From a virus: 64,000 nt of DNA. The stretch spans positions 1 through 64,000 of the IMG/VR virus record IMGVR_UViG_3300021964_006878; one strand, written 5' to 3'. Under the pieces are notes generated by a model. It saw only the letters and a list, made by a program, of their open reading frames with translations. It made no database searches and was not told the DNA's origin. Made by a program: the position numbers and the translations under genes. Below, in pieces: positions 44,488 to 62,000 of this stretch; within the stretch, counting starts at the first letter, position 1, and every line of letters begins with the position of its first letter.

Positions 44488-44489
44488 AC

Positions 44490-44738: not shown

Positions 44739-44761
44739 GGTTACAAAACTCAATGAATTAT

Positions 44762-45364
44762 TTAGACCCATTCAAGGGCTTCAGCAATGATAGAAAGGTT
44801 GTTGTGTATTTTTTTGATATGCTCTGCAAAATGTTTTACATCCATATCTAACTTCATACTATTACATATTCTACAGCAAGGAACGCAGTTCTCTTTGGTA
44901 TAACCAAGAGTATTATCTACTCTATCAACACCTGTATAGTAGAAATCGCCACTGGTTTTTCCTCCTCCCTTTACTCTATTCTGACCTTGACTTCCACAAT
45001 AAAGACAAGGAGCAGTTGCTATACCACAAAACTCATCTTTTGTCAAGTCAAATGTGTGGTTTCTTTTCTCCGCACATTTAGAGTATTGATAGTATAAGTT
45101 ATTTTTTGCAGCCTCACCAGGAGCAAGTTGCCAAGACCTGGTGTATGCTCCACCATTATGTTTCCAAGTAGAGGATATTTTTTGGTTACATCCACAGGAG
45201 TATCTCCTCTTTATGTTGAAACTATACATCTCCTTTACATTATCACATAAAGAACACCTCACAACTCCTCTGGTGTGTCGTCCTGATTTAGTTGCAGGTA
45301 TTACTTCCAGTATAGTAAAGTTTCCTACAACATCTCCAACATTGATAGAAGATTTTCTTCCCAT
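44762..45364 (-). mobile_element. Free-standing HNH-type homing endonuclease (200 aa) at the thyX 3' end
   Basis: N-terminal Cys domain (C..C...SCGC); C-terminal CLYCG...GVDRVDNTLGYTKENCVPCCRICNSMK; own TATAAATA at 45389-45396. Confidence 0.85.
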
Positions 45365-45401
45365 AGTAGTAATGTATCCAACTACTTATATTTATATTAT
45401 A

Positions 45402-46055
45402 TCATATCAACCACTCATTATCAATACCTCCAAGTGCTTCTGCTGTTATGGGAAACTCTTTACAAAATATCTCCTTACAAGATTTTGCAATTTCCATATG
45501 CTCTTTCTGTGTTCCATTCTTCTCTCTCAGAGCAATGTAAGTAATCCAACTCCGCAGACTGCCAGTCATGTAGATTCTGGTGGGAGTACAGAGGGGAAGC
45601 ACATTTCTTGCACATTCCTTTGCCACACCACGCTCAAGCATCTGCTGATATAATGCCATAGAAGAATCAAACAGAGTCTGCATTTGCAGTTCCATGTTCT
45701 GAATTATAAAAGGATCAAGGTCATCAATCGAGTTCTGACGATTCTTTGTATCCTGACGGCGAAGTTCAGGCAAAGGAATCTTATCACCAAGCAGAGATGA
45801 ATCTGCATACCGTTGTGAAAATTCTTGATATGTGAAACTTCTATGACGCAATATCTGAGCCGCAATAGCACGGGTAGTCTCAATCTCTAAGGTCATAGTG
45901 GATTGTTCAAACACAGACCAGTGGTTGTGCTTGATACAGTAACGTAAAAGACCAGCGTACTTATCGTTCTCCTGGTTACTGGGGTTGGAAACTCTAGCGA
46001 TATACGCCATAGTCTTTTCTGCGTCAGGAGTAACGCTTACTAGTTGTGCTCTCAT
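45402..46055 (-). CDS. thyX: Flavin-dependent thymidylate synthase
   Basis: ThyX motif LRHRSFTYQEFSQRY; HWSVFE. Confidence 0.95.
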   Translation of the reverse strand: MRAQLVSVTPDAEKTMAYIARVSNPSNQENDKYAGLLRYCIKHNHWSVFEQSTMTLEIETTRAIAAQILRHRSFTYQEFSQRYADSSLLGDKIPLPELRRQDTKNRQNSIDDLDPFIIQNMELQMQTLFDSSMALYQQMLERGVAKECARNVLPLCTPTRIYMTGSLRSWITYIALREKNGTQKEHMEIAKSCKEIFCKEFPITAEALGGIDNEWLI

Positions 46056-46561
46056 AACATTTGCAATAATCTATGTTCTTTGTGATGATTTCTTGTGCCC
46101 TTATATGTTTTGTGTAGAGTTTGTTTGTTTAAATCATTCTCTAAACAAAATGTCGTAAGGTTTTTCACCTCTATTATATCACCAGAAGGGATTTTAATCA
46201 ACCACCTTTTAGAGTTGTCTGGCATTTTATAAACCCCATTCTTAATGGCGTCTTCAACATTTTCTTTTATTGTTCCCCATTTTAGATTAGATAAAGAGTT
46301 ATTATCTTTATTGTCGTCAAGATGTCTAACTACTTCGTGGTTCTTTGGGTTTGGAATAAATGCCATAGCAAGAAGTTGATGTAGTCCTTTCTGCCTTCTT
46401 TTTCCTTTTAAATCATACAAAGAAAAAGCATAGTATCCCCTTTTGTTTTTATGCCCGTTAATATATCTTTTAAGTTTAATCGAATAAACTTTTCCATCTG
46501 GGTATATTTTATAATGAGGATACTCATCTAGTATTCTACAATCCATCTCCATCATCGTCAT
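46052..46561 (-). mobile_element. HNH homing endonuclease (NUMOD4/HNH-like)
   Basis: HQLLAMAFIPNP....VRHLDDNKDNNSLSNLKWGT..EN; TATAAATA at 46580-46587. Confidence 0.88.
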
Positions 46562-46757
46562 TGATTAGTAGGTATGGATTATTTATACTTTTAGTCACGC
46601 CATCATCATCGTCTTCAAAAATCTCATCGTAGTCGCCTACAATTGTAGTATTTCTCTCATATGTATATGCTTCTATATCCGAGTAAACCTCAGACTCCAA
46701 AGCATCGACAAGAGATTTTAAATTACGTACAATGAGTTTTAGTTTTTGTTTGTCCAT
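46536..46757 (-). CDS. Conserved cyanophage protein with acidic tail, extended by the HEG insertion
   Basis: MDKQKLKLIVRNLKSLVDALESEVYSD...DYDEIFEDDDDG. Confidence 0.75.
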   Translation of the reverse strand: MDKQKLKLIVRNLKSLVDALESEVYSDIEAYTYERNTTIVGDYDEIFEDDDDGVTKSINNPYLLINDDDGDGL

Positions 46758-46780
46758 AAACTCAATTACAGTATCCATAC

Positions 46781-46817
46781 ATTCTACACAAAAAAAGCGT
46801 GTCTGTCAAGACACGCT
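46781..46817 (-). promoter_or_regulatory. Terminator hairpin overlapping a sigma70-like promoter
   Basis: AAGCGTGTC-TTGACA-GACACGCTTTTTTT followed by TAGAAT. Confidence 0.6.
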
Positions 46818-46824
46818 TCGTATA

Positions 46825-46995
46825 TTAATTTAATAGTCTCCTACATATTCGTTTACATACAGATTGAGAATCATCGCACTCAATCAAACAATCAAAGTAG
46901 TCGTTTGTCAAATCCATTTCATCATTATATAAATTTAAACTTTGTCCAATATTCCTCCATTCAGCTAATTGGTTACTTGACATGACATTGTGCAT
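46825..46995 (-). CDS. Small Cys-rich protein of picocyanobacterial type (56 aa)
   Basis: Manual translation MHNVMSSNQLAEW...NDYFDCLIECDDSQSVCKRICRRLLN. Confidence 0.7.
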   Translation of the reverse strand: MHNVMSSNQLAEWRNIGQSLNLYNDEMDLTNDYFDCLIECDDSQSVCKRICRRLLN

Positions 46996-47125
46996 AGTTT
47001 AACCCTTAAGAGTTTACATCATTGATATAGAAAGATTTTCAGATCATAGGAAGTTTTTTAATTCTGTATTATTTAGGTTAGTTTGTGTTAATTCACTAAC
47101 ATTTGTTAATTCGTTACTTAAAGAC

Positions 47126-47154
47126 AAAAAAAGAGAGGATAGTCAATCCTCTCT
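47126..47154 (-). terminator. Intrinsic terminator of the DUF4278 transcript
   Basis: AGAGAGGAT-TGACT-ATCCTCTCTTTTTT. Confidence 0.8.
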
Positions 47155-47172
47155 GCAATGTAAGTTAATGAA

Positions 47173-47340
47173 TCACTTAGTATAAGTACGACCACGATAG
47201 CAGAATGTACCGTGCGACTCTTTGTTTTCTACACAACGAGTAGAATACTCAACACCACGATATGAAGTGTGAAGAATTTGTGCGTTATGCAGTGCAGATG
47301 CTTTGTTGATCTGCTGCTTTACCATTTGAAGGGTGTTCAT
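47173..47340 (-). CDS. DUF4278-family small protein (GS-inactivating-factor IF17-like), 55 aa
   Basis: MNTLQMVKQQINKASALHNAQILHTSYRGVEY...GTFCYRGRTYTK (double YRG motif); SD AGGAG; downstream of glnA aptamers. Confidence 0.8.
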   Translation of the reverse strand: MNTLQMVKQQINKASALHNAQILHTSYRGVEYSTRCVENKESHGTFCYRGRTYTK

Positions 47341-47373
47341 GTTGTTACTCCTAAAGTAGTTGGATTTTTAGGT

Positions 47374-47561
47374 CCGTTCCTTTAGTCGTTTGCGTCCCAA
47401 TACCACTCACATTCTGGTGCTGAGTCCTTAAGAGTCTCAATCAATTCAATCTTAACTATATTACTAAGATTAGAATTTTTCTCAATCTTCAGCATAATAG
47501 CATCAGTTTGAGTACAGCTGAGTGTTGTATAGAATAATAGTTCTAACATGGGATGAACGAT
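47374..47561 (-). ncRNA. glnA-type glutamine riboswitch aptamer 2 (P2 region contains an ORF)
   Basis: AUCGUUCAUCCCA...UGGGACGCAAACGACUAAAGGAACGG; P1 CGUUC/GAACG, P2 UCCCA/UGGGA. Confidence 0.75.
47382..47549 (-). CDS. 55-aa ORF embedded in the riboswitch aptamer
   Basis: MLELLFYTTLSCTQTDAIMLKIEKNSNLSNIVKIELIETLKDSAPECEWYWDAND; uninterrupted frame. Confidence 0.7.
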   Translation of the reverse strand: MLELLFYTTLSCTQTDAIMLKIEKNSNLSNIVKIELIETLKDSAPECEWYWDAND

Positions 47562-47644
47562 TAGAGTGATTTTTTCCAGCGACGAATAGAAGTATGAGAT
47601 GTTTGATAATCTTCTGCAAGTTTTCTAATAGGCAGTGTAGCAAA
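47561..47644 (-). pseudogene. HTH-like coding remnant between the two aptamers
   Basis: Startless frame FATLPIRKLAEDYQTSHTSIRRWKKSL*, preceded by an in-frame TGA. Confidence 0.5.
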
Positions 47645-47657
47645 TCATTCTAATTCT

Positions 47658-47724
47658 CCGTTCCGCGACTTACTTGCGTCTCCTAATCAAGTCCAAATTT
47701 GTTCCAAATTAGGAGATGAACGAT
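47658..47724 (-). ncRNA. glnA-type glutamine riboswitch aptamer 1
   Basis: AUCGUUCAUCUCCUAAU...AUUAGGAGACGCAAGUAAGUCGCGGAACGG; 9-bp P2. Confidence 0.82.
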
Positions 47725-47730
47725 AGGTCT

Positions 47731-47759
47731 ATTATAGACCTCATACATTATTTAGTCAA
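47731..47759 (-). promoter_or_regulatory. Sigma70 promoter for the riboswitch transcript
   Basis: TTGACT-N17-TATAAT; predicted +1 near 47724, the first base of aptamer 1; -10 box sits in the palindrome GGTCTATAATAGACC. Confidence 0.8.
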
Positions 47760-47934
47760 GTAGTTCTGCATTATCGTTTTCTTTCATAAGATTAGATACT
47801 ACTTTTTCTGTACCGTCAATAACTTTAATCTGATACAGGTTAGACTTCATATACTTTTTAATTTTCTTGTACTTCTTCTTGACTTGCTCAATACCATCAA
47901 AGTTGATATCAACATTCAGATTATTGTCAGTCAT
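47752..47934 (-). CDS. Hypothetical protein (60 aa)
   Basis: ORF track; coupled to the upstream gene. Confidence 0.6.
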   Translation of the reverse strand: MTDNNLNVDINFDGIEQVKKKYKKIKKYMKSNLYQIKVIDGTEKVVSNLMKENDNAELLD

Positions 47935-48221
47935 TTCTTTTTCTTTTCTTCTTTCTTGGGTTCACTACCAGGAGCATTCCACATTTTGGGATTCATTGTT
48001 CCACTAGATTGTTTCATATCAATAAAGTTATCACGATACTTGTCCCAATAATGATCAAAGATATCTACTTTCTTAGTTGCAATAACTAAATCAAAATGTT
48101 TTCCACCATCTACCTTATACTCAATAAGATAGCAGGTATAAGGTAGAGACTTATCCTTTGATAATTCTGGATCACAATCTTCATGCAATATTTTAAGTTT
48201 ACTCAACTTCTCCCTCCCCAA
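47931..48221 (-). CDS. Conserved cyanophage hypothetical protein
   Basis: ILHEDCDPEL..DKSLPYTCYL...KKVDIFDHYWDKY; start uncertain. Confidence 0.7.
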   Translation of the reverse strand: MGREKLSKLKILHEDCDPELSKDKSLPYTCYLIEYKVDGGKHFDLVIATKKVDIFDHYWDKYRDNFIDMKQSSGTMNPKMWNAPGSEPKKEEKKKK

Positions 48222-48829
48222 GTGATATCAGGATATGCTTGAGAAACAATATCCTTAGTAATATTATACTTATTTTCTAGGTTCTTATCCTTTACAAGGC
48301 ACAAGATCTCTGCGTCAAGTGGATGCAGACCTTCAAGCATCTGAATAAACATGGTCTCTCTACGAAGACTCTTAAGTTGGTCGTTACCACCTTTACAGAA
48401 GTTGTAAAATCTCCGATACTCTTTACGAATAGTGGTCTTGCCTTTCTTCAGGTCACTAATTCCCATGGAATCATTCTGATTATATTCCATGGTACCAACT
48501 GCCTGAGCAATCTTAGTGCTCAGAGTACCAGTAGTAATTTGCTCATCCTTCATACTAGAGTATGGCACTTCACCAGGAGGGAGCAGAGAAATCACACTCT
48601 CATCAAAATTCCAAATGAATAATGCTTTGATAGAATCATGTTCATGCTTCTTAAGCACCTCTATCTTCTTTGCTTTTGTTTTCTGCTTATTCACCAGAGC
48701 AAAAACTTCAAAGGTAAAAGGATTAGGTGGCAGTTCCAGTGTTGCTGGTGCTGCCTTCGGTCTAGGAGTAGACGCTTTCTTAATCGTCGTCTTCCTCGTC
48801 GTGGTCTTGGGTTTCGTAGTCATTTTCAA
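48203..48829 (-). CDS. Conserved T4-like cyanophage protein (208 aa)
   Basis: LPPNPFTFEVF...WNFDESVISLLPPGEVPY...RRETMFIQMLEGLHP. Confidence 0.8.
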   Translation of the reverse strand: MKMTTKPKTTTRKTTIKKASTPRPKAAPATLELPPNPFTFEVFALVNKQKTKAKKIEVLKKHEHDSIKALFIWNFDESVISLLPPGEVPYSSMKDEQITTGTLSTKIAQAVGTMEYNQNDSMGISDLKKGKTTIRKEYRRFYNFCKGGNDQLKSLRRETMFIQMLEGLHPLDAEILCLVKDKNLENKYNITKDIVSQAYPDITWGGRS

Positions 48830-49007
48830 ATCTTACAGCTAAAATTTCATCTGGTAATACATTACCATATTCATCCAACATTTCAGGATGAATGTACGGG
48901 AGTGCCTGTCTTTGGAATATTTCTCTTGCAATGAGTCCAATCAAACCACCAATAAGCAGAAATTGAACAGATACAAGGGAAAAAAGAGTTATAGTTGCAG
49001 CATTCAT
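48780..49007 (-). CDS. Small membrane protein (75 aa)
   Basis: N-terminal TM segment; HPEMLDEYGNVLPDEILAVRFEN. Confidence 0.7.
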   Translation of the reverse strand: MNAATITLFSLVSVQFLLIGGLIGLIAREIFQRQALPYIHPEMLDEYGNVLPDEILAVRFENDYETQDHDEEDDD

Positions 49008-49225
49008 AAACCTTCTCCAAGAGATTTTTTTCTAATAAGTAAATTTATCTCAAAGTTAAAATGAATCTCTCTTCCAAAGAAAGAGACCATTTTGGCAAAC
49101 TTCACATAGTTGCCTTTTTGGGGTGCTGGTCTCCCTCCCAATAGTAATTCTACACCTTTATTTATTGCAATATCAGAGGAGTTTTTCTTCCCTGAGGTAT
49201 TTGATGGTTTCACTACATCCTCCAA
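49004..49225 (-). CDS. Hypothetical protein (start uncertain)
   Basis: INKGVELLL...SFFGREIHFNFEI. Confidence 0.55.
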   Translation of the reverse strand: MEDVVKPSNTSGKKNSSDIAINKGVELLLGGRPAPQKGNYVKFAKMVSFFGREIHFNFEINLLIRKKSLGEGL

Positions 49226-49409
49226 GTTTCTTTTGGTCCGCTAGAATTTGGGGAAATGATGTACCATGTCCGAATTCATTATAGAATTCATCAGGGGTGA
49301 AGTCTCTTCCAAGTTTATATTCTACAAACTTTTGTTCGGTTAGTGTGAGGACCTGAACGATCTTATCACAATATGGGCATCCTGGTTTTGAATATACAAT
49401 TAAATTCAT
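49173..49409 (-). CDS. nrdC: Glutaredoxin
   Basis: YSKPGCPYC...SFPQI...LGG. Confidence 0.92.
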   Translation of the reverse strand: MNLIVYSKPGCPYCDKIVQVLTLTEQKFVEYKLGRDFTPDEFYNEFGHGTSFPQILADQKKLGGCSETIKYLREEKLL

Positions 49410-50050
49410 TGTTGTACTCCTTTCCAATCATTTTCAAAGATTGCCATTCCCATATCGGTAAGGATATGATCATGCATCTGTTCAAATATAGAAGGTGGCA
49501 TAGTTACTACACTAGCACCATTATACCATGAACGGACAGCACGTTGCACACTACGAATAGATGCCGAGAGTACTTGAGTAGGAGCACCCTGTATACGATA
49601 CAGTTCAGAAATAGAACGTACAACTTCTAGACCTGCTACTGATTGGTCATCCAATCGTCCTACGAAAGGAGAAACATAATATGCACCTGCTCGTGCTGCA
49701 AGAACTGCCTGGGCAGCAGAGAAGATAAGAGTCACATTGACACGGATGTTATTGTATGATAATTCGCTGCAAGCTTTAAGACCTTCACGAGTCATAGGAA
49801 CCTTAACAGTGCAAGGAAACCCAAATGTTTCAAACAAACGACGACCTTCTGCAATCATATCATCAGCATTCCCCATGACTTCCATGCTGATATCTCGGAT
49901 ACCCATGTCCTTGATCTCTTGATAGACATCATCAGGTTTCCGACCACTCTTCATAATCAGAGTAGGATTTGTAGTGATGCCATCAATCAATCCAGTATCA
50001 TTATATTTACGAATCAATTCTGTGTCTGCTGTATCCAGAAAAATTTTCAT
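49406..50050 (-). CDS. talC: Transaldolase
   Basis: MKIFLDTAD...GITTNPTLI...YVSPFVGRLDD. Confidence 0.95.
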   Translation of the reverse strand: MKIFLDTADTELIRKYNDTGLIDGITTNPTLIMKSGRKPDDVYQEIKDMGIRDISMEVMGNADDMIAEGRRLFETFGFPCTVKVPMTREGLKACSELSYNNIRVNVTLIFSAAQAVLAARAGAYYVSPFVGRLDDQSVAGLEVVRSISELYRIQGAPTQVLSASIRSVQRAVRSWYNGASVVTMPPSIFEQMHDHILTDMGMAIFENDWKGVQQ

Positions 50051-50247
50051 TTGAGTTTATTTAAAAATTCTCTCTCGTCATTATATAGAAACTTCATATC
50101 TTTGTCAAGGAAATATTCAATTCCTATCACGACTTCTGGTAGCAACCATTCATGCACTGGTAGACATGCTTCCCAGTTCACAGGTTGAATACAATTCATA
50201 ACCACCACCGACCAAAAGGCAGCAGCATAATTGATGATGCTAGTCAT
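50047..50247 (-). CDS. Conserved cyanophage hypothetical protein
   Basis: AFWSVVVMNCIQPVNWEACLPVHEWL. Confidence 0.7.
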   Translation of the reverse strand: MTSIINYAAAFWSVVVMNCIQPVNWEACLPVHEWLLPEVVIGIEYFLDKDMKFLYNDEREFLNKLK

Positions 50248-51173
50248 GTTACTTTCCCGATAACCCATGACCTCATACCGAATGGAGTATCAGCAATCAG
50301 AGTTTGAGTTAGTGTTGCTACCTCTTGTGGCACCACCAAACAGAATCCAATACCAAGATTGAATACATTACGCATCTCATCTTCAGCAATGTCTCCTGCC
50401 TCCTGGATCTTGTTAAAGAGTTCTGGTCTCTCCCAAGCATCATAGTCAACATCAACTTTAAGACCTGCTGGAAGGCATCGTGGAAGGTTCTCAGGCAGTC
50501 CTCCACCTGTGATGTGTGCCATGCCTAGGATAGGAACCTCATCCAACAGGTGCTGGATCAGACGAGAATAGATGGTGGTTGGAACCAGCAGCTCAGGCAT
50601 CTCTTTATAATAGATGTAATTTCTCCACAGCATATCATTGACGAGTGTGTATCCATTACTATGAAGTCCACTGCTCTCAATACCAATGACTACATCACCA
50701 GGTCTGATGTTACTACCATCAACAATATCATTCTTCTCTACAATACCAGTACAGAAACCAGCAAGGTCATATTCAGTTGCTCTATAATGTTCTGCCGTTT
50801 CTCCACCTAGGAGTTCCATACCAGCCATTACACAACCAACATTAACTCCATACACAATGTCACTGACGTTAGCATCAAGTGATTTAGTAGAGATATAATC
50901 TAGAAAATATAATGGTTTAGCACCAGAACATATAACGTCATTGACGCACATAGCAACAAGGTCCTGACCAATAGTGGTGTAATCAAAAGCAATCCTACAG
51001 ATATTAATTTTAGTTCCGACACCATCAGCACCAGATACCAGCACAGGTTTCTCATATCCTGATGGAATCTCCATCATTCCATTGAACCCACCAATGTTAG
51101 GTGCCAGTGCTTTGATATACTCTACAAAGGAACGTCCCTTAATAATATCAACACCAGAAGTTTTATAATCCAT
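50244..51173 (-). CDS. purM: AIR synthetase
   Basis: YKTSGVDI, DGVGTK, GGETAE, SSGLHSNG, HITGGG. Confidence 0.95.
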   Translation of the reverse strand: MDYKTSGVDIIKGRSFVEYIKALAPNIGGFNGMMEIPSGYEKPVLVSGADGVGTKINICRIAFDYTTIGQDLVAMCVNDVICSGAKPLYFLDYISTKSLDANVSDIVYGVNVGCVMAGMELLGGETAEHYRATEYDLAGFCTGIVEKNDIVDGSNIRPGDVVIGIESSGLHSNGYTLVNDMLWRNYIYYKEMPELLVPTTIYSRLIQHLLDEVPILGMAHITGGGLPENLPRCLPAGLKVDVDYDAWERPELFNKIQEAGDIAEDEMRNVFNLGIGFCLVVPQEVATLTQTLIADTPFGMRSWVIGKVT

Positions 51174-51370
51174 CAGTCTCTTCCCAAACGAATGTACAAA
51201 GTAATCAATGATTGTGAGATTAGATCACAAGAATATGTGAATCCAATCTTATCTTCCTTGTCCCAGTGTTCTCTTTGACTTTTAAGAAGTGTGGAAAACT
51301 CCTTAATTTTAGACCTCATTTCCTCTTTAGATAATTTATCCAATGATTTCACCTTTGGCAATTTGTTCAC
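51173..51370 (-). CDS. Hypothetical protein
   Basis: ORF coupled to purM; start uncertain. Confidence 0.55.
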   Translation of the reverse strand: MNKLPKVKSLDKLSKEEMRSKIKEFSTLLKSQREHWDKEDKIGFTYSCDLISQSLITLYIRLGRD

Positions 51371-51608
51371 GACGTTTTAGTTTCCATACGATGTAATCCA
51401 TTGTAGGGATACACATAGGATTCCAACCAACAAAGGATGTTGATTCTCCACTTGGTATCTTCCAACAGGGAGCATCATCATTCTCAAGGTCTAATGACTT
51501 ACGATACTCTTCCTCACCAAACATAACAACAGCACGTTCTGCTTCATTCAAACTCTTGAAGCAATCAAAAGAATTCTTTCTAATGATGTCAGGGATGTGA
51601 TGTTTCAT
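51336..51608 (-). CDS. Conserved cyanophage hypothetical protein
   Basis: MKHHIPDIIRKNSFDCF...GWNPMCIPTMDYIVWKLK. Confidence 0.7.
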   Translation of the reverse strand: MKHHIPDIIRKNSFDCFKSLNEAERAVVMFGEEEYRKSLDLENDDAPCWKIPSGESTSFVGWNPMCIPTMDYIVWKLKRREQIAKGEIIG

Positions 51609-51825
51609 TTTGAATCTCAAGTTTAAGTTTACGAATACCAGTGATGAAATAACCAAAGTCCCTGGTTTCTGTGATGGGTTTTGTCTCACCACATACACCA
51701 CACTTTGATTCATACACAGATGAACATCCTACAGAATAAACTCCATACTTATGTCCACAATCAAAACAAGTGTTGTAGGCAGTTTCAAGTTTCTTAAGTA
51801 GGGTCTTTTTTTCTTTGATGGTCAT
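51589..51825 (-). CDS. Small Zn-ribbon protein
   Basis: CFDCG...CGVCG. Confidence 0.65.
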   Translation of the reverse strand: MTIKEKKTLLKKLETAYNTCFDCGHKYGVYSVGCSSVYESKCGVCGETKPITETRDFGYFITGIRKLKLEIQNETSHP

Positions 51826-51827
51826 TA

Positions 51828-53779: not shown

Positions 53780-53781
53780 AA

Positions 53782-54012: not shown

Positions 54013-54044
54013 TAAAAAAGAGGGTCCTTAACCCCCTTATTATA

Positions 54045-54263
54045 TCACTGATTGTTCTGCTTGTAAAGGTCTTCAAGTCTTTCTCTACTGAGATCAACAT
54101 ACATCAACTCTTCACCTGCTTGTGGTGCCTCGGGATGCTTTGGTTTGGGAGGATTCCTCATCTCTACGTTAATAGATTGAATGTTACTCCACATCATAGC
54201 AAACGCAGCACCAGCAATGAGAGCAAAGCATACACCGTAAACAAAAACAAGATAGTGATTCAT
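54045..54263 (-). CDS. DUF2973-like membrane protein
   Basis: AGAAFAMMWSNI...HPEAP..GEELMYVDL. Confidence 0.7.
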   Translation of the reverse strand: MNHYLVFVYGVCFALIAGAAFAMMWSNIQSINVEMRNPPKPKHPEAPQAGEELMYVDLSRERLEDLYKQNNQ

Positions 54264-54268
54264 AGTAG

Positions 54269-54460
54269 TTATTTGTTGTTTTTACATGATAGTCCATAAT
54301 AATAAATCTTATTGTGATTGTTCTGCCCCATTCGATAAGGAAACATTTCTTCTGCTCTTTCCTTTATCTGAAGTTCAGTTAAGTTTGGTGCCTCATAACA
54401 AATCGTAGACATGTAATAAGACATTCCTGCTGCTAATAAGAAAGACATAAAACTTATCAT
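54269..54460 (-). CDS. Hypothetical protein (63 aa)
   Basis: ORF track. Confidence 0.5.
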   Translation of the reverse strand: MISFMSFLLAAGMSYYMSTICYEAPNLTELQIKERAEEMFPYRMGQNNHNKIYYYGLSCKNNK

Positions 54461-54523
54461 AATTTAATTATCTATAATAAAAGCACCCCTGTAAAGGAGT
54501 GCTGTGACGGTTTGGGAAGTGGT

Positions 54524-55087
54524 TTAGAGTGCTTCCAGATTTTCTACCAGTGTTTTGAGTTCTGTAAGTGTGGCATCATTCTTGAGAGTATTAGCCCTAT
54601 AACTTATTACCCAGATATTATCAGGAGTATATCCTTTTCCAGGAACTTTTTGATCTAAACTTGGATTTCTTGGGTCTGTCTTATCACTTGTAGATACTAA
54701 TGGTATTCCAAGTAAAGGACAAACTTCTGGTATTACAATATCATCCATAGAGATTGTAAAGGGTATACCTTTTTTCTTTGCTCTGTGTTGAGCATTATGA
54801 TACATCTTATATCTACGGTCGTCTCGTTTGAGAGTTCCTTCAGGTTTCTTTTTAGTTTTATTGAAGGTAATTGTAGTTTCTCTTCTAACACACCCACAAC
54901 TTGTAGTTCTTCCAGTCGTTAATCCACTTCTGTCACAAGTTTTTTCTCCACCACATTCACATTTACAAGTTGCATATACTCTGGTTTTTCCACTCTTTAA
55001 AATAACTTCTTCTTTTAAAACAGTAAGTTTTCCAAACTTCTCATCAACTAAAGCACCACAAGGTTTTGATTTATTATTTAATCCCAT
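54524..55087 (-). mobile_element. Free-standing HNH-like homing endonuclease downstream of psbD
   Basis: FGKLTVL...CKCECG...SCGC; CPLLGI...PSLDQKVPGKGYTPDNIWVISYRANTLKND; TATAAATA at 55113-55120. Confidence 0.85.
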
Positions 55088-55148
55088 GACACGAACTATG
55101 AATAACTATTATTATTTATATAATATCATACTCTGGGTCTTATGTAAA

Positions 55149-55171
55149 TAAAAAAGACCCCGAAGGGTCTT
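55149..55171 (-). terminator. psbD terminator
   Basis: AAGACCC-TTCG-GGGTCTTTTT. Confidence 0.85.
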
Positions 55172-55176
55172 GAGTA

Positions 55177-56235
55177 TCAAAGAGCATTTCCTCTTGGAAG
55201 GATCTCCTCAATTACAGGAAAGTTTTCGTGTGGTTGGTCAATAGTCATCATCCATTCACGGAGGCCATTGTTCAACAAAATATTTTTCGTGTAGAAAGTT
55301 TCGTATGAAGCGTCCTCTGCTGCTCTAATCTCTTGACTCACAAAATCATAGGCACGAAGATTAAAAGCAAGCCCAATGATCCCAATAGAGGAGACCCAAA
55401 GACCCATGACAGGAACAAAAAGCATAAGGAAATGAAGAAACCGCTTATTGCTAAACGCAATCCCGAAGATTTGCGACCAGAAACGGTTCGCAGTAACCAT
55501 CGAATAGGTCTCCTCCTCCTGAGTGGAATCGAACGCTTTAAATGTGTTTGCCTGTTCTCCATCTTCATACAATGTATTTTCTACTGTGACACCATGGATA
55601 GCACTGAGTAGTGCTCCTCCTAGTATACCAGCAACTCCCATCATATGGAAGGGGTTGAGGGTCCAGTTGTGGAAACCCTGAAGGAACAATAGGAATCTAA
55701 AGATTGCTGCTACCCCGAAACTAGGTGCAAAGAACCATGAAGACTGACCCAGTGGATAGATAAGGAATACACTGACAAAAACAGCAATAGGACCAGAGAA
55801 CGCAATAGCATTGTAAGGACGGATACCAATCAGGCGAGCAAGTTCAAACTGTCGAAGCATGAAACCAATGAGAGCAAAGGCTCCGTGGAGTGCCACAAAA
55901 TTCCAGAGTCCCCCAAGTTGGCACCAGCGTTGAAAGTCCCCTTGAGACTCAGGACCCCAAAGTAGCAAAAGAGAATGACCCATAGCGTCAGCAGGCGTCG
56001 AGACAGCTGCCGTAAGAAAGTTAGCACCCTCAAGATAGGAAGAAGCAAGACCATGGGTGTACCAACTCGTAACAAAAGATGTGCCAGTAAGCCAACCGCC
56101 AATGGCAAGATAAGCAGTGGGAAGAAGTAAGAGTCCAGACCAACCCACAAAGACAAAGCGATCCCGTTTAAGCCAGTCATCCAGGACATCAAACCATCCC
56201 CTCCCTTGTTGCTGTGATAATGTTGATGTTGTCAC
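55177..56235 (-). CDS. psbD: Photosystem II D2 protein
   Basis: [22 protein letters not shown]...PRGNAL; GTG start. Confidence 0.98.
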
Positions 56236-56498
56236 TATTTAAACCCTCCTTTTAGATTTTTTTGTTTTTTGTTTTTAATATCCAAAACTTCTATATGAGA
56301 TTTGAATACTGTTGGAAGATTAAACCATTCTTCTTGTGCTCGTTCATAACCCTCAAAGATTTTACTTTGACCGTCTGAATACACAAATCGGTAGTGATGT
56401 CTATCATATGGTGTGTCAGAAGTTTGAGCAAACCATTTCGGTAGTTCTGGTAAGACATCATCCAAGATTCTTTCTTCTGGATCTAATTTTCCATTCAT
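56235..56498 (-). CDS. Hypothetical protein between psbA and psbD
   Basis: [15 protein letters not shown]...SHIEVLD. Confidence 0.7.
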
Positions 56499-56531
56499 GA
56501 GAATAAGTAATTAAACTTAACATTTGTAAGT

Positions 56532-56560
56532 AAAAAAAGAGGGGATCCGAAGACCCCCTT
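56532..56560 (-). terminator. psbA terminator
   Basis: GGGGGTC-TTCG-GATCCCCTCTTTTTTT. Confidence 0.85.
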
Positions 56561-56586
56561 GCTTCCTATTAATTATAGCAGATATA

Positions 56587-57666
56587 TCAACCAACTGTGG
56601 GTGCAATTAAGGCCACAGGTGTGGACTCTACTGCTGCCAAATCAAGTGGGAAGTTGTGTGCGTTTCTCTCGTGCATCACCTCCATACCAAGTCCTGCTCG
56701 GTTAAGAACGTCTGCCCAAGTGTTAAGAACTCTACCCTGTCCGTCGATAACAGACTGGTTGAAGTTAAATCCATTCAAATTGAATGCCATGGTGCTTACG
56801 CCCAGTGCGGTGAACCAGATACCAACAACAGGCCATGCAGCAAGGAAGAAGTGCAATGAGCGTGAGTTGTTGAATGAAGCGTATTGGAAGATCAAACGAC
56901 CAAAGTAACCGTGAGCGGCAACAATGTTGTATGTCTCTTCTTCTTGTCCGAACTTGTAACCATAGTTCTGTGACTCAGTTTCAGTCGTCTCACGGACGAG
57001 TGAAGATGTAACCAAAGAACCGTGCATCGCTGAGAACAATGAACCACCGAAGACACCAGCCACTCCAAGCATGTGGAAGGGGTGCATCAGGATGTTGTGC
57101 TCTGCTTGGAAGACAAGCATGTAGTTGAATGTACCACTGATACCCAAAGGCATCGCATCAGAGAATGAACCTTGACCGAAAGGATAGACGAGGAATACAG
57201 CAGATGCTGCTGCTACTGGAGCAGAGTATGCTACACAGATCCATGGACGCATACCTAAGCGGTAAGAAAGTTCCCACTCACGTCCCATATAAGCATAGAT
57301 GCCGATAAGGAAGTGGAAGACTACGAGTTGGAAAGGACCACCGTTATACAGCCACTCATCAAGAGATGCTGCTTCCCAGATGGGATAGAAGTGAAGACCA
57401 ATTGCGTTGGAGGATGGGACAACAGCACCAGAGATGATGTTGTTACCGTACATGAGTGAACCAGCAACTGGTTCGCGGATACCGTCAATATCGACGGGGG
57501 GTGCTGCTACAAAAGCAACGATGAAACAGATGGTTGCCGCCAACAGAGTTGGGATCATCAGCACACCAAACCAACCGACATAGAGACGATTGTTGGTAGA
57601 TGTAACCCACTCGCAGAATTGTTCCCACGAAGAGGTTGATTGTTGTCTAGAAAGAGTTGAAGCCAT
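56587..57666 (-). CDS. psbA: Photosystem II D1 protein
   Basis: [15 protein letters not shown]...[13 protein letters not shown]; no intron. Confidence 0.98.
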
Positions 57667-57679
57667 TGTTTTGAACAAA

Positions 57680-57750
57680 AAAGTAAGACCATCAGGGAAT
57701 GGTGGAGTTACTATTTCCCAGACACCCTAAGTCTGGGATATGAAAGACTG
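57680..57750 (-). ncRNA. PhotoRC-II-like RNA motif in the psbA 5' UTR
   Basis: UCUUUCAUA-UCCCAGAC-UUAGGGU-GUCUGGGA-AAUAGUAA...ACCAU-UCCCUG-AUGGU-CUUAC; loop-loop AGGG/CCCU complementarity. Confidence 0.8.
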
Positions 57751-57830
57751 TTGTTTAGACACGCTGTTTAGTCTTGGTAAGGCGTGTTACAAATGGTTAA
57801 GAAATGTGTTGGTTCCGTAACCTCTCGACT

Positions 57831-57864
57831 TATTTATAATACCACTGTTTTGGGTCTCTGTCAA
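57831..57864 (-). promoter_or_regulatory. Overlapping early (sigma70) and late promoters for psbA
   Basis: TTGACA-N17-TATTAT overlapping TATAAATA. Confidence 0.75.
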
Positions 57865-57868
57865 CCCC

Positions 57869-58030
57869 CTAGTACCGATATTCTTGAATTCTATCCAAGA
57901 CTCGATTGAGATACTTGTGTGCTAGATCCTTTTCTTTCTGCCAAACCGATTTCGATTCTCCGTCAACCTCATGCTTGAGTTTGAGAACATGGCATATCAG
58001 TTCATCTTTGTTCAATTGATTCTTTGGCAT
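57869..58030 (-). CDS. Small conserved hypothetical protein (53 aa)
   Basis: MPKNQLNKDELICHVLKLK...LAHKYLNRVLDRIQEYRY. Confidence 0.7.
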   Translation of the reverse strand: MPKNQLNKDELICHVLKLKHEVDGESKSVWQKEKDLAHKYLNRVLDRIQEYRY

Positions 58031-58034
58031 ATTA

Positions 58035-58077
58035 CAAAAAAAGACCTTACTCAGTATATAGAGTAAAGTCTTTTTTG
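58035..58077. terminator. Bidirectional terminator-like hairpin
   Basis: AAAAAAAGAC.TTACTC...GAGTAA.GTCTTTTTT. Confidence 0.65.
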
Positions 58078-58081
58078 TCTG

Positions 58082-58207
58082 TTATTGGATTGGGTTTTGT
58101 GCTGGTATCAACATACCACCATCAAAATGGTCATCGTCATCAACATCTTCTGTAAGCACTGAATGAATTATAAAAGCACCCAACATAAAGGTTGCTAATA
58201 ACATCAT
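58082..58207 (-). CDS. Small membrane peptide (41 aa)
   Basis: MMLLATFMLGAFII...DDDDHFDGGMLIPA; TGATG-coupled to hli. Confidence 0.6.
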   Translation of the reverse strand: MMLLATFMLGAFIIHSVLTEDVDDDDHFDGGMLIPAQNPIQ

Positions 58208-58314
58208 CAAAATATGCCCGGAATCAATTGACCTGTGGTTGCATATGCTCCGATTGCTGCAATGACTCCAATCATTGCTGCCCAACCGTTAATACGTTCT
58301 GCTCTTTCGTTCAT
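58207..58314 (-). CDS. hli: High-light-inducible protein (35 aa)
   Basis: MNERAERINGWAAMIGVIAAIGAYATTGQLIPGIF. Confidence 0.93.
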   Translation of the reverse strand: MNERAERINGWAAMIGVIAAIGAYATTGQLIPGIF

Positions 58315-58547
58315 GAGTTTTCTCCTAGTTTAAGATAAAATTGAGTTTGGTCTTTTGGTAACTTTGGTGAAGGATCATAGATCGAACTATCACCATATGT
58401 TTTGTGGTCTTTATATCCAACCATACGTCCTTTCGTATTTTGGATTGCTCCCATCATAGCAATAATCAGGAAGATTGCAGGCGGTCCTATAATAAGGGCA
58501 CCACCAATTACATAATAAGTAAGGAGTTCAGCAATAGAAGTTTCCAT
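58311..58547 (-). CDS. Small membrane protein
   Basis: TM segment; GYKDHKTYGDSS. Confidence 0.65.
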   Translation of the reverse strand: METSIAELLTYYVIGGALIIGPPAIFLIIAMMGAIQNTKGRMVGYKDHKTYGDSSIYDPSPKLPKDQTQFYLKLGENS

Positions 58548-58633
58548 CAATAAGTTTCAGATAAGTTTTCAATAGAGAAGCAAAGTAAGACAAGAAATGC
58601 AATGCTTGTCATGGTAAAAACAAATTCAATCAT
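58547..58633 (-). CDS. Tiny TM peptide (28 aa)
   Basis: MIEFVFTMTSIAFLVLLCFSIENLSETY; TGATG-coupled at both ends. Confidence 0.6.
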   Translation of the reverse strand: MIEFVFTMTSIAFLVLLCFSIENLSETY

Positions 58634-58851
58634 CAGAATCCGAAGACACCAAAGAAAAATACGCTACCACTGAAAGTATAAGAGACAACAGCAGCAACAA
58701 ATCCAAGCATAGCAGTACGTCCATTCAACTTCTCAGCTCTCTCTGCATATGTCTCAAGACCATAACGTTCTGCATCAGTCTCAGAGATATACATTCTAGG
58801 TTCTGTGGCATACATGTTTGTGCGCCCACCGTCTTCAGTTGTTACAGTCAT
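58633..58851 (-). CDS. hli: High-light-inducible protein (72 aa)
   Basis: NMYATEP...AEKLNGRTAMLGFVAA. Confidence 0.93.
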   Translation of the reverse strand: MTVTTEDGGRTNMYATEPRMYISETDAERYGLETYAERAEKLNGRTAMLGFVAAVVSYTFSGSVFFFGVFGF

Positions 58852-59011
58852 GTTACACTCCGTAATGTTTCTTTACATATTATATAGGAAACATAAAAAT
58901 TTGTCAAGCAGTCTGAGTGACGGTATCTTGCGGAACATATATTTCTCATAAAACTCTAATAAAAATCACATCTTTCTAAATACATATACATACCTCCTTC
59001 GGAAAAAAAAT

Positions 59012-59506
59012 ATGAAAAGGTTATTGCCTTTCATAATGTTATTGATGACCGCACCAGCAGCAAATGCAGGCGGACTTGTATCAAAAATGTCTTCTAGTGT
59101 TCAACTAACTGTTGAATCTGCTAGATCAACTGCTGTAAGAGTTGGTAATTCTTATAGTATTTCAGGTAGTGGTATTAATACTACTGATGGCACCACAGCA
59201 GGAACTGTTTCTGCTGGCACTATTACTAGTGGCATCTATTCTCCTGGAACTATCTCAGCAACTCAGGCAACTGATGGTAATGCTTTCACATATAGCACCT
59301 CGTTTACTCAAGGTGATGATATCCCAAGTGCTGCTCCTACTGTAGGAGATGTCCCTAACTTCAGTAATGTAACTTCTTACACTGCTGGTGTTGCTGGATC
59401 TTTGGCTGGTACTGTAGCGACTACAGGTGCTCTAACGGTGACGGCTGGTGGTGCTGGTACTACTGCAACTGGACAATTCGTTTCTGAGATTACTGTTATC
59501 GACTGA
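59012..59506 (+). CDS. Secreted beta-rich hypothetical protein (164 aa)
   Basis: Signal peptide MKRLLPFIMLLMTAPAANA; T/S/G-rich. Confidence 0.75.
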   Translation: MKRLLPFIMLLMTAPAANAGGLVSKMSSSVQLTVESARSTAVRVGNSYSISGSGINTTDGTTAGTVSAGTITSGIYSPGTISATQATDGNAFTYSTSFTQGDDIPSAAPTVGDVPNFSNVTSYTAGVAGSLAGTVATTGALTVTAGGAGTTATGQFVSEITVID

Positions 59507-59517
59507 GGAGGAACGCA

Positions 59518-59955
59518 ATGAATACTATGATTCGTTGGTCTGTCCTAAGTGCGGTGGGTGTAAGTGTCACACTTGCTCCTGCCCTGTCGGTCCCCGTGGT
59601 CCCAAACTTCACACAGGGATCAATGACGAGCAGAACGGAAACAACTCAGAAGATAACTGAGACAATAAATAGCATGGATTATAACACTGGGTATCAGTAT
59701 TCTGCTACTGGTTCTGGTGTCACAGCATCTGGAAACCTTTCACCAGGAACAGGTGCTACAAATGTAACTATTAATGGAGTGACTTCATCATGGACTGGAG
59801 TAACAAGCAAACCGCAATTCACACAAACAGTACCAGGAGCAGCGTTTCAGTTCACAGAAACTTATCGAGGACCTGGTTTAAGCAACCAAACGATTATCCA
59901 AAGAGAAACCGAGGTTACAAGCATAACTGAAACAACCTCAATTTTTAGTCAGTGA
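59518..59955 (+). CDS. Secreted hypothetical protein (145 aa)
   Basis: Signal-like N-terminus; VPVVPNFTQGSMTS...TSIFSQ. Confidence 0.75.
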   Translation: MNTMIRWSVLSAVGVSVTLAPALSVPVVPNFTQGSMTSRTETTQKITETINSMDYNTGYQYSATGSGVTASGNLSPGTGATNVTINGVTSSWTGVTSKPQFTQTVPGAAFQFTETYRGPGLSNQTIIQRETEVTSITETTSIFSQ

Positions 59956-60471
59956 TTTCAGTGCCTCATAGAGCATTCCAATTTCCTCTATGGTGGCATT
60001 ATTCTTTATACGATTAGCACGAGCAGAAATGATCCAAACATTATCTTTTGTATAACCTTTGGTGCTATCAATCCTATCAACAGAAGGAGAACAATCTTGA
60101 TGAGTGTCTGATCCTGGTTGTAATTTAATACCAAGCACAGGACAAAACTCTGGGATTACAATATCATCCAGAACCAAACTACATTCTTCACCTCTTCTTC
60201 TGGCATTACGACGAGCATAGTTTAGCAGTCGTGTTTCATTCTTTTTAGTAGGATTAGCTCTGGGATGTGTGTAACCTGCTGACTTTCTACACCCACAACT
60301 TACTACTGGTTTCCTACCTCTAAATATATCAGAACTAATAAGTTTTTCATTATTACACTCGGAACACTTACACCAGTAAGTTCCTCTCTTATTTTTCTTG
60401 GTTGCCTCTTCATCCTTACGAATAACAAGAAGAGCACCAAATGTTTGTCCCGACAAATCTACTACTTTCAT
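59938..60471 (-). mobile_element. Free-standing HNH-like homing endonuclease inserted antisense in a + strand operon
   Basis: DLSGQTFG.L.V...WCKC...SCGC; CPVLGI...PSVDRIDSTKGYTKDNVWIISARANRIKNN; TATAAATA at 60503-60510. Confidence 0.87.
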
Positions 60472-60486
60472 TATTGTGATAACATT

Positions 60487-61290
60487 ATGTCTTTACTAAA
60501 ACTATTTATACACAATAGATATTCTAAATCACTTCTCGCAGTAACTTTATTATTTGCTAATCCTTCTTATGCTGAAACCGTTGGTGGTGTGTCTGCTACT
60601 GCTAATCCTGTTGCTAATTCCTCAGGTAGTGTTACAAACCAAGCTATTCAGGTCCTTCAGGGACCTTACATTACGAACACCTACGGTGGAGGTATACAAT
60701 GCCAAGGTCCCACTCGCAATTTCACTCCGTATGTAACAGGAAGTGTTTCTGCTGCTAAACCTTTTCAAGGTTATTATAATGACCCAGTATATGATGTCAC
60801 CGATAATTTTGGTGCCTTCGATTCTGACGGGAATCCAACTGGAGATGGTATCTTAGATAATCCTGGTGATGTAAGTTTCTTTAAAAGAACTAGAACAGGA
60901 CAGAAAGATAACTATAGTTTAGGTGTAGGGTTCTCTATGACATGGAGCACACCTACGGATAAAAACTTACAAGACCTGTGTAAGAAAGCAGCAACTACAC
61001 AGATTGAATTGAACAGTCAAATTGTTGCCAATAAAAGATTGGACTTTGAGATAGCCAGACTTAAAAATTGTGGGGAGTTGAAGTTAAAAGGAATTCAATT
61101 CCATCCTAAGAGTCCTTACTATTCTGTGTGTGCTGATGTATTGGTAAACAATCCACCAGGACATAATCATCCACACTACCATGAGATTCCTAGCGTTTCT
61201 TCTTCTTCCTCGGGAAGACAGAACGTAATGCCTTCACTGCATGATTCATCTGACGCTGCTCTGCTCGGCGCTCCCCTGACGACAAGATAG
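60487..61290 (+). CDS. Secreted/membrane hypothetical protein with conserved Cys
   Basis: ETVGGVSATANPVANSSGSVTNQAIQVLQGPY...RLDFEIARLKNCGEL; start probably displaced by the HEG. Confidence 0.75.
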   Translation: MSLLKLFIHNRYSKSLLAVTLLFANPSYAETVGGVSATANPVANSSGSVTNQAIQVLQGPYITNTYGGGIQCQGPTRNFTPYVTGSVSAAKPFQGYYNDPVYDVTDNFGAFDSDGNPTGDGILDNPGDVSFFKRTRTGQKDNYSLGVGFSMTWSTPTDKNLQDLCKKAATTQIELNSQIVANKRLDFEIARLKNCGELKLKGIQFHPKSPYYSVCADVLVNNPPGHNHPHYHEIPSVSSSSSGRQNVMPSLHDSSDAALLGAPLTTR

Positions 61291-61990: not shown

Positions 61991-62000
61991 CAGTCGATAA

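Follow-up and report, generated by a model that had tools for sequence, protein, structure and literature searches.

Duplicated gene ends around three PacI-like homing endonuclease genes point to intronless homing into terminal codons in a marine cyanophage

We analysed a window of 64,000 nucleotides (positions 1 to 64,000 of IMG/VR virus record IMGVR_UViG_3300021964_006878), which forms part of an 85-kb viral contig estimated to be 43% complete. Its source is a T4-like marine cyanomyovirus, with homologues of psbA, psbD, thyX, talC, purM and phoH among its genes and with Synechococcus and Prochlorococcus myoviruses as closest database relatives. Three free-standing homing endonuclease genes (HEGs), designated HEG1, HEG2 and HEG3 and the only PacI-like copies in the whole 85-kb record, lie at the 3' ends of thyX, psbD and a DUF6322 gene, each separating an in-gene tail from a second version of the same gene's last codons. 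We consider it very likely that these are paralogous elements carried in mobile cassettes that occupy the last codons of conserved genes. With distinctly less assurance, we also favour the broader interpretation that this PacI-like HNH family lives in coding sequence without splicing, and that its cassettes overwrite C-termini (those of D2 and ThyX) while homing, so that HEG traffic drives amino-acid change.

An earlier note on this DNA had described three HEGs of similar architecture at the ends of thyX, psbD and ORF 59518, each followed by repeated last codons of its host gene (AEAL at thyX, and AL and FSQ directly before a stop at psbD and ORF 59518) and each with an exact late-promoter motif, TATAAATA, at 45389, 55113 and 60503 respectively. 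The coordinates and the homology of the three genes (pairwise identity 23–37%) are confirmed and the three motifs were found; the repeated codons are true remnants, as they match the native ends of alleles that carry no HEG. We refer to alleles with and without a HEG at a locus as HEG-plus and HEG-minus, and to surveyed contigs and loci, including those from IMG/VR, by L-numbers (L360 is S-RIM12). The survey covered 80 IMG/VR thyX loci, mostly HEG-minus, 77 HEG-minus psbD alleles and 69 HEG-minus IMG/VR DUF6322 loci.

Both HEG-plus and HEG-minus alleles are found in related genomes at all three loci, and the arrangement of HEG-plus alleles is the same at each: the gene body continues in phase into an inserted C-terminal segment, which is followed by the HEG open reading frame (ORF) and then by the native C-terminus. 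The cassettes enter within the terminal codons, at 9 (thyX), 2 (psbD) and 4–7 (DUF6322) codons ahead of the native stops. At thyX, psbD and DUF6322 alike the native C-terminus is nearer to HEG-less relatives than the inserted one is, and in HEG-minus alleles the sequence matching the gene body continues straight into the counterpart of the stranded tail and not into that of the in-gene tail, as the earlier note had predicted. Gene bodies and far flanks are 86–100% identical to HEG-minus backbones, whereas the in-gene tails are 92–100% identical to other HEG-plus contigs and only about 54–75% identical to HEG-minus alleles. This switch in identity, a co-conversion mosaic, falls approximately 170 nt (thyX), 115 nt (psbD) and 28 nt (DUF6322) from the gene end. 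The cassettes are mobile between backbones: those of HEG1 and HEG3 are 81–97% identical, and the psbD block 95–100% identical, to HEG-plus contigs whose flanks reach only 64–79%, and the breaks in identity coincide exactly with the cassette edges. HEG-linked replacement tails are present in 11 (thyX), 7 (DUF6322) and 2–4 (psbD) independent contigs or phages. These include the cultured phages S-SKS1 (psbD cassette) and RB11-B (DUF6322 cassette), and the arrangement is therefore compatible with viability.

The features of the thyX locus are as follows; here and below, protein endings are written up to the stop codon.

45402–46055, minus strand: thyX (Thy1 family), host gene of HEG1 (Pfam PF02511, E 1.4e-47; mosaic identity)
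45402–45575, minus strand: cassette-linked thyX 3' block of approximately 170 nt (identity to HEG-plus contigs and L111/L112)
45402–45449, minus strand: replacement thyX tail, the last 16 codons ITAEALGGIDNEWLI and stop (15-nt GGIDN insertion relative to native EALEWV)
45389–45396, minus strand: late-promoter-type motif TATAAATA of HEG1, 24 nt upstream of its start
44762–45364, minus strand: HEG1, PacI-like HNH HEG of 200 aa (phrog_1035/3118/3322)
44762–44791, minus strand: stranded native thyX tail IIAEALEWV, which forms the in-frame C-terminus (9 codons) and stop of HEG1 (commonest thyX ending)
44490–44738, minus strand: downstream gene, phrog_385 regulator, forming the right homology flank (identity to HEG-minus L089–L092)

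EALEWV is the most frequent end among the 80 surveyed thyX loci, and thyX of the HEG-minus phages S-PRM1, S-CAM9, S-T4 and S-8S55 ends ..FP[IV][IV][AS]EAL[EG]W.. (in S-8S55 a denV-type gene lies 3' of thyX instead). In the window, thyX terminates in ITAEALGGIDNEWLI and it is HEG1 that terminates in ..NNLSIIAEALEWV. HEG1 relatives that do not adjoin thyX align only to approximately residue 186–193 of 200 and have an end of their own (..HI.KI.NH..), thus the native thyX tail, in its native frame, makes up the final nine codons and the stop of HEG1; it also matches L091 at the DNA level. Homologues of HEG1 occur in 11 IMG/VR contigs (58–95% identity), in every case directly 3' of a thyX ending AEALGG..W.., and the replacement tail therefore travels with the HEG. 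The stranded tails vary among the HEG1-plus contigs, with the forms PTISEALDW, SVISEALEW and PIISEALEW and a read-through form in L014–L016, and three contigs (L017–L019) have no recognisable stranded thyX tail. A more distant HEG1 homologue among the thyX loci (L114) ends SLEWN.

Sliding identity divides the locus into three parts. Nucleotides 0–480 of thyX are 90–100% identical to HEG-minus L089/L090, while the last approximately 170 nt are 54–67% identical to HEG-minus L089–L092 compared to 92–100% for HEG-plus L009/L013. The HEG1 cassette shares 95–97% nucleotide identity with those of L009/L012/L013. Beyond it, the stranded tail and the downstream regulator gene return to 86–91% identity with HEG-minus L089–L092, compared to 65–69% with HEG-plus contigs. 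Two further loci, L111/L112, have a cassette-type thyX end that is 100% identical over its last ~120 nt, yet lack a HEG; their sequence is that expected from deletion between the two late-promoter-like repeats of an L013-type allele, and we read it as a footprint of HEG loss. The GG-type end is also present without a HEG in L122.

The HEG1 homologues of L014–L019 bear an additional C-terminal extension, C[PAS]EC.D..SIT.E, which in L014–L016 comes after a stranded thyX tail that has lost its stop. One metagenome (3300025674) yielded the thyX-linked HEG contigs L016 and L114 as well as the HEG-minus thyX contig L124, and both states of the locus appear to co-occur in the same community.

The psbD locus comprises the following features.

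55177–56235, minus strand: psbD (photosystem II D2), host gene of HEG2 (ORF list, sequence comparison)
55177–55291, minus strand: cassette-linked divergent psbD 3' block (identity to S-SKS1)
55150–55171, minus strand: terminator-like hairpin 3' of the new psbD stop (sequence inspection)
55113–55120, minus strand: TATAAATA motif of HEG2, 25 nt upstream of its start
54524–55087, minus strand: HEG2, PacI-like HNH HEG of 187 aa (phrog_3322, E 2.7e-31)
54476–54532, minus strand: stranded psbD end, the last two codons and stop (GCACTCTAA, the AL and stop of HEG2) with the 48-nt native terminator (HEG-minus matches)

HEG2 is 50% identical to an endonuclease of S-SKS1 that likewise lies 3' of psbD. 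In the HEG-minus phage Sf-FS3, psbD ends ..GGCAAC GCACTCTAA and is followed by the same terminator as is found 3' of HEG2, and the match between Sf-FS3 and the 3' end of HEG2 contains exact GCACTCTAA. Positions 54470–54532 (the stranded element and six bases downstream) are 86% identical to Sf-FS3, 88% to S-RIM12 and 92% to L375. We considered whether the AL ending could be a chance likeness (the S-SKS1 HEG also ends ENLEAL), which was overturned by a search with 94 nt spanning the HEG2 stop that matched the psbD 3' end of HEG-minus phages. A longer stranded tail is seen in L350, where a HEG2 homologue ending ..LVEKLEEVLPRGNAL and followed by a psbD-type terminator retains ten codons (EEVLPRGNAL); this contig ends inside the HEG and its upstream side is not covered. 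In a further, independent match, a small repeat element that follows the psbD stop in S-RIM12 follows the EAL end and stop of the HEG in L329.

The last ~115 nt of psbD are 95–100% identical to S-SKS1, compared to 60–70% for typical alleles. The best match to this block among the 77 HEG-minus alleles is 74%, compared to a control median of 90% and minimum of 83%, while the two 120-nt blocks upstream of it reach 92% in their best HEG-minus match. The new block alters approximately 9–10 residues of the normally invariant D2 C-terminus (usually RAW[ML]AP[VA]D..F[VI]FPEEVL). The last five codons of the window's psbD recur in two HEG-minus alleles, L368 and L421. Two HEG-less loci have duplicated psbD ends and are, like L111/L112, read as footprints of HEG loss. 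In L363, 17 nt separate the new-type psbD end from a remnant of the HEG ORF (its last 15 nt), after which comes the native terminator; as these 15 nt are retained, the HEG was deleted. L441 has a different divergent psbD end followed by a second ..NAL end and terminator.

The sequence 3' of psbD is itself variable. A terminator module of the form ACCACYTCC..AAACNGTC..hairpin..TTTTTTATTGTATAAT (54476–54523, minus strand) is also present in L007, L359–L362, L375 and L421, and its sites in cyanophage genomes are unrelated (3' of psbD, 3' of a small Cys-rich ORF), with three copies in S-SKS1; it may be a mobile or recombination-prone terminator or promoter element. A fragment encoding GCCGAGCPDCPFRP.., known from ACG-2014b and ACG-2014e as the 3' end of a small annotated gene, lies directly 3' of the psbD stop in HEG-minus L378 and L388, directly 3' of the HEG stop in L344/L345, and at positions 300–400 of L361/L362, and may represent a further stranded gene end. 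In L360 (S-RIM12), L329, L343, L371, L391 and L418, the psbD or HEG stop is separated from the terminator by a short AT-rich element bounded by repeats (CTTTTAATAAGG..CTTATTAAAGG..), which looks like a miniature mobile element.

At the third locus the HEG lies antisense to its host gene and between two genes that overlap in HEG-minus alleles.

59518–59955, plus strand: DUF6322/phrog_650 gene, host gene of HEG3 (Pfam PF19847, E 2.6e-40)
59928–59955, plus strand: cassette-borne replacement tail ..ETTSIFSQ (antisense overlap with the last HEG3 codons)
59938–60471, minus strand: HEG3, PacI-like HNH HEG of 177 aa (phrog_3322, E 1.1e-31), antisense to the host genes
60503–60510, minus strand: TATAAATA motif of HEG3, 31 nt upstream of its start, inside the new 5' coding region of the downstream gene
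60487–60531, plus strand: cassette-borne new start codon and n-region MSLLKLFIHNRYSKS for the phrog_848 gene (HEG3-plus contigs)
60532–60544, plus strand: stranded native DUF6322 end CTTCTCGCAGTAA (..FSQ), identical to HEG-minus alleles
60487–61290, plus strand: downstream phrog_848 gene, right homology flank (phrog_848, E 1.2e-123)
59790–59930, plus strand: orphan 46-codon ORF, formerly the 5' part of the phrog_848 frame, which stops at the cassette junction

In the 69 HEG-minus loci (among L249–L328), DUF6322 ends T.T[TV]SIF[SQT]Q. The phrog_848 frame (–1 relative to DUF6322) is open across the DUF6322 end in all 69 and has a conserved ATG 166 nt before that end in every one, with no other start between this ATG and the signal-peptide core; thus the two genes overlap. 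In the window, RB11-B and L169–L174 the cassette enters after ..CATAAC (59927 in the window), in the order replacement tail, HEG3, new ATG with n-region, native tail. The native tail is complete (21–22 nt) in L169–171 and L173 and reduced to 13 nt in the window and L172; in the window the stranded CTTCTCGCAGTAA is now part of the signal-peptide coding sequence of the downstream gene, in another frame. The 5' part supplied with the new start, ATG through ..CACAAT, is kept by every HEG3-plus contig, and no HEG-minus allele has it. HEG3-plus phages do without an N-terminal extension of ~50 residues in the phrog_848 product; either this extension can be spared, or expression of the downstream gene ordinarily takes another route (frameshift fusion or coupling).

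The HEG3 cassette is 81–94% identical to those of L169–L174, and its replacement DUF6322 tail shows only one or two base differences across these contigs despite divergent gene bodies. By comparison, HEG-minus ACG-2014e shares 93% identity with the window's DUF6322 body and 88% with its right flank, while HEG-plus contigs share 70–81% and 64–69% respectively. The new tail differs from 57 of the 69 HEG-minus tails at ≥9 of 21 nt, yet encodes the commonest ending, TSIFSQ. HEG-minus L298, which keeps the native gene overlap, differs from it at only 2/21 nt.

HEG1, HEG2 and HEG3 share an N-terminal Cys-rich module and a C-terminal D..GY..N..N..K nuclease motif, and match the same PHROG endonuclease families (phrog_1035, phrog_3322 and phrog_3118, E 1e-18 to 1e-31). 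Pfam gave no significant family for any of the three, and a weak CapR match (E 0.045) on the N-terminal module of HEG3. An alignment of 32 homologues identified C110, D132, G139, Y140, N144, N153 and K156 (HEG3 numbering) as invariant; all three ORFs are intact and keep every one of these residues. The sole match in a phmmer sequence search of the PDB was the restriction enzyme PacI (E 0.24, shared stretch VDRxDSxxGY...N...NRIKxN). An AlphaFold model of HEG3 (pLDDT 83.5) likewise retrieved PacI first in a Foldseek search of the PDB (E 5e-3, probability 0.98), with HNH nucleases next. HEG1–3 are PacI-like enzymes of the HNH superfamily (beta-beta-alpha-metal fold), and by analogy with PacI it is plausible that they are active nucleases.

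The exact TATAAATA motif lies on the minus strand 24, 25 and 31 nt 5' of the starts of HEG1, HEG2 and HEG3 respectively, and at HEG1 it is kept in most HEG1-plus contigs, with a difference of one base in L009. Over the entire window the motif shows no enrichment (6 observed compared to 5.8 expected), but four of the six copies sit 18–31 nt 5' of the start codons of the window's four HEGs, the fourth of which is described below. From this motif, late expression of HEG1–3 would be expected.

In terms of their origin, the simplest reading of the new tails is that they are gene ends of a divergent donor lineage carried along with the cassette, possibly followed by later selection for divergence between the tails. 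The replacement C-terminus described in the earlier note stands, but the term recoded is an overstatement for psbD and DUF6322; given the psbD codons in L368/L421 and the near-copy of the DUF6322 tail in L298, we dropped the argument that recoding of every codon proves selection. The in-frame use of the native stop by HEG1 and HEG2 may be a form of economy, whereby the stop, terminator and downstream promoter context are kept, although two cases are insufficient to show selection for it.

We propose that a cassette consists of a donor-type 3' gene end (the replacement tail), the late-promoter-type TATAAATA and the HEG, with the gene body serving as left homology arm and the native tail and downstream DNA as right arm. 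In a mixed infection, nuclease made late would cut a HEG-minus allele in or near its native 3' end, at a site that would span the insertion point, and recombinational repair would copy the cassette from the HEG-plus genome. The left crossover would fall in the gene body, giving co-conversion tracts of ~28–170 nt. The right crossover would fall inside the native tail, and the lengths of the stranded tails would consequently differ between contigs. The host gene would stay intact because it now ends in the cassette's tail, while the native tail would survive as a remnant which, for the same-strand HEG1 and HEG2, provides the last codons, stop and terminator of the HEG. As HEG3 is antisense and splits an overlapping gene pair, its cassette would have to serve both neighbours, giving the upstream gene a tail and the downstream gene a new ATG and n-region. 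The cassette's own tail would be immune, and the swap would destroy the cleavage site as the earlier note had supposed; the divergence between the two tail copies plausibly blocks self-cleavage and repeat-mediated deletion.

Several observations weigh against this proposal. The canonical HNH/Endo VII histidines are missing from all three proteins, in which DRVD (HEG1), DQKV (HEG2) and DRID (HEG3) replace DHDH, thus the case for activity is built on analogy with PacI. In the HEG-plus genome a near-complete native thyX tail stays behind HEG1, which implies that the recognition site would have to reach upstream of this tail, across the junction. The HEG2-plus contigs L329, L331, L339, L345 and L348 have ordinary D2 tails at the protein level, and the divergent tail is therefore not obligatory. 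Near-copies of new tails are present in the HEG-less alleles L298 and L122, so the tails need not have been recoded under selection.

Some of the same observations would be expected if the HEGs were inactive passengers, with a single old insertion and duplication per locus spread by ordinary T4-like homologous recombination and no nuclease-driven homing. The lack of catalytic histidines fits such a history, as do the mosaicism of psbD along its whole length irrespective of HEGs and the presence of new-type tails in HEG-less alleles. However, three intact ORFs with all family-invariant residues, each with its promoter motif retained at a fixed distance, are not what would be expected of passengers; neither are cassettes 81–97% identical across backbones with flanks of ~65–79% and breaks exactly at the cassette edges, nor the same pattern in three paralogues at three loci, and we consider this explanation unlikely. 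It is more improbable still that the duplicated gene ends came first, for example by replication slippage or illegitimate recombination, and that HEGs colonised the gap later. Duplicated psbD ends without a HEG do exist in L441 and L363, but these are the only HEG-less duplications among ~69–80 alleles per locus and are read as HEG-loss footprints, L363 being a deletion derivative by virtue of the HEG remnant it retains, and sequence identity ties the replacement tails to the HEG.

The in-frame fusion of HEG1 and HEG2 to the stranded tails could suggest instead that an unrecognised self-splicing intron or intein-like element carries the HEGs and that the product joins the gene body to the stranded tail. 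This is hard to credit when each host gene has a full, in-frame tail, conserved at the protein level, and a stop ahead of the HEG, when the two thyX copies overlap (I.AEAL is present twice), when HEG3 is antisense, and when a promoter, and at psbD also a terminator, lies between gene and HEG; a search of 43000–62000 against Rfam (E ≤ 0.1) matched no intron family. Lastly, were these ordinary intergenic HEGs, the likeness of AEAL, AL and FSQ to native gene ends would be coincidental. AL and FSQ amount to just 2–3 residues, but the DNA likeness extends over the 48-nt psbD terminator (86–92%), the entire gene downstream of DUF6322 and 30 nt at thyX, and related contigs have longer stranded tails; the HEG-minus alignments refute coincidence, and we give it practically no weight. 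Homing of cassettes into terminal codons is thus the reading we prefer.

The earlier note had regarded the tail-swap geometry as little known. For phages this holds in so far as no report was found in the literature searched, the coverage of which is incomplete, so that absence of a report is not proof; it does not hold for biology in general, since the geometry is known from mobile ORFs (mORFs) of fungal mitochondria (PMC3630166). Such ORFs generate gene hybrids in Allomyces macrogynus atp6 and in Glomus atp6, atp9, cox2 and nad3, where the gene continues in phase into a foreign C-terminus, and the native one, which more closely resembles that of relatives, is found downstream (PMC3630166). 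In Endoconidiophora, atp6 and cob likewise have duplicated C-termini beside free-standing HEGs (PMC6279837). The resemblance extends to an endonuclease ORF in the 3' part of a conserved gene, a divergent in-phase C-terminus that largely keeps the amino acids, and identities to HEG-less relatives of native versus inserted ends (91–98% versus 64–81% in Glomus; 86–100% versus about 54–75% in the window); an origin of the tails in a donor lineage has been proposed for the mitochondrial cases as well. In contrast, the mitochondrial endonucleases are of the LAGLIDADG or GIY-YIG type, reside in an organelle and are usually in phase with the upstream gene, whereas those of the window are viral, PacI-like HNH enzymes, each a separate cistron behind a stop and a late-type promoter motif and unfused to the upstream gene. 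HEG1 and HEG2 instead run in frame into the native tail downstream of them, the duplication covers short segments (9–30 nt stranded, 28–170 nt replaced), and one antisense cassette (HEG3) also rebuilds the start of an overlapping downstream gene. What is new here is therefore the viral host, the nuclease family, the joining of a HEG to the native tail 3' of it, and the antisense form that rebuilds both ends of an overlapping pair.

Among phages, HEG insertion has split nrdA of Aeh1 (by mobE) and separated the T4 topoisomerase genes 39 and 60 (by mobA). These cases resemble ours in having a free-standing HEG inside one coding unit with no splicing, but there the gene is in two translated pieces, whereas in the window it is whole by virtue of its duplicated end. 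The free-standing Seg and Mob HEGs of T4 are described as intergenic and as cutting hundreds to thousands of bp away from where they are inserted (PMC2988022). Shared with the window are a T4-like phage, polymorphic free-standing HEGs, flanking co-conversion, late promoters and targets in adjoining conserved genes; the differences are the window's insertion inside terminal codons, compensated by a duplicated tail, and the nuclease family. A large cyanophage comparison reported endonucleases at the gp17 3' end and did not describe duplications (PMC3037559). F-CphI of cyanophage S-PM2, a DHHRN/Endo VII-motif enzyme, takes part in collaborative homing with a psbA intron that protects its own genome (PMC6083498). 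Like HEG2, it is a free-standing HEG beside a photosystem II gene in a T4-like cyanophage, and it shares with the window's enzymes a C-terminal beta-beta-alpha-metal nuclease domain, an N-terminal DNA-binding part and an overlapping PHROG label, endonuclease VII. The DHHRN family is however defined by a conserved D-H-(D)-H ... R ... N flanked by CX2-4C and CX2C (PMC6083498). Membership of HEG1–3 is ruled out by their catalytic residues, as the equivalent stretches (VDRVD in HEG1, LDQKV in HEG2 and VDRID in HEG3) contain zero histidines; the distal CX2C is also missing from HEG2 and HEG3. Self-protection would likewise differ, being conferred in the window by tail replacement and not by an intron. 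S-PM2 was absent among the tblastn matches listed for the HEGs.

In the textbook view, based on T4, free-standing HEGs avoid coding sequence, and entry into a gene requires an intron or intein. The loci described here suggest a third route in phages, in which a HEG enters the last codons and brings a spare gene end. The odd D2 C-terminus of the window contig and S-SKS1 may then be explained as a by-product of selfish-element traffic, and, if our interpretation is correct, such traffic directly drives amino-acid change in highly conserved viral photosynthesis genes. It also provides a signature for annotation, namely a HEG that ends in a repeat of its neighbour's C-terminal codons, or, as the footprint of loss, a gene end that is present twice with no HEG. 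Environmental data would thus capture the HEG life cycle of invasion, co-conversion and loss, the last leaving an allele that may be immune. The system is tractable, as the HEG-plus phages S-SKS1 and RB11-B are in culture along with many HEG-minus cyanophages (e.g. S-PRM1, Sf-FS3), and phage loci could, if the interpretation holds, serve as an experimental model of a process described to date in fungal mitochondria alone.

The window's fourth HEG is unrelated to the other three.

46052–46561, minus strand: HEG (Pfam HNH_3) flanked by a small gene and thyX and preceded by a TATAAATA copy at 46580–46587

Compared to HEG-minus L089/L091/L092, it has taken the place of 17 bp in which the preceding small gene (46536–46778, minus strand) natively ends (GYPD); this gene now runs into a longer, unrelated tail, and no stranded duplicate is left. 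In this genome, tail duplication is therefore a trait of the PacI-like family and not of every HEG.

An intron- or riboswitch-like RNA around the HEGs was rejected on the Rfam result (43000–62000, E ≤ 0.1), and the host genes terminate ahead of the HEG. The search returned only a sub-threshold glutamine-II riboswitch match at 47649–47725 (minus strand; 22.4 bits compared to a gathering score of 33) and the PhotoRC-II RNA motif (Rfam RF01717, 65.6 bits, E 1.6e-9), which lies upstream of psbA at 57703–57799 (minus strand).

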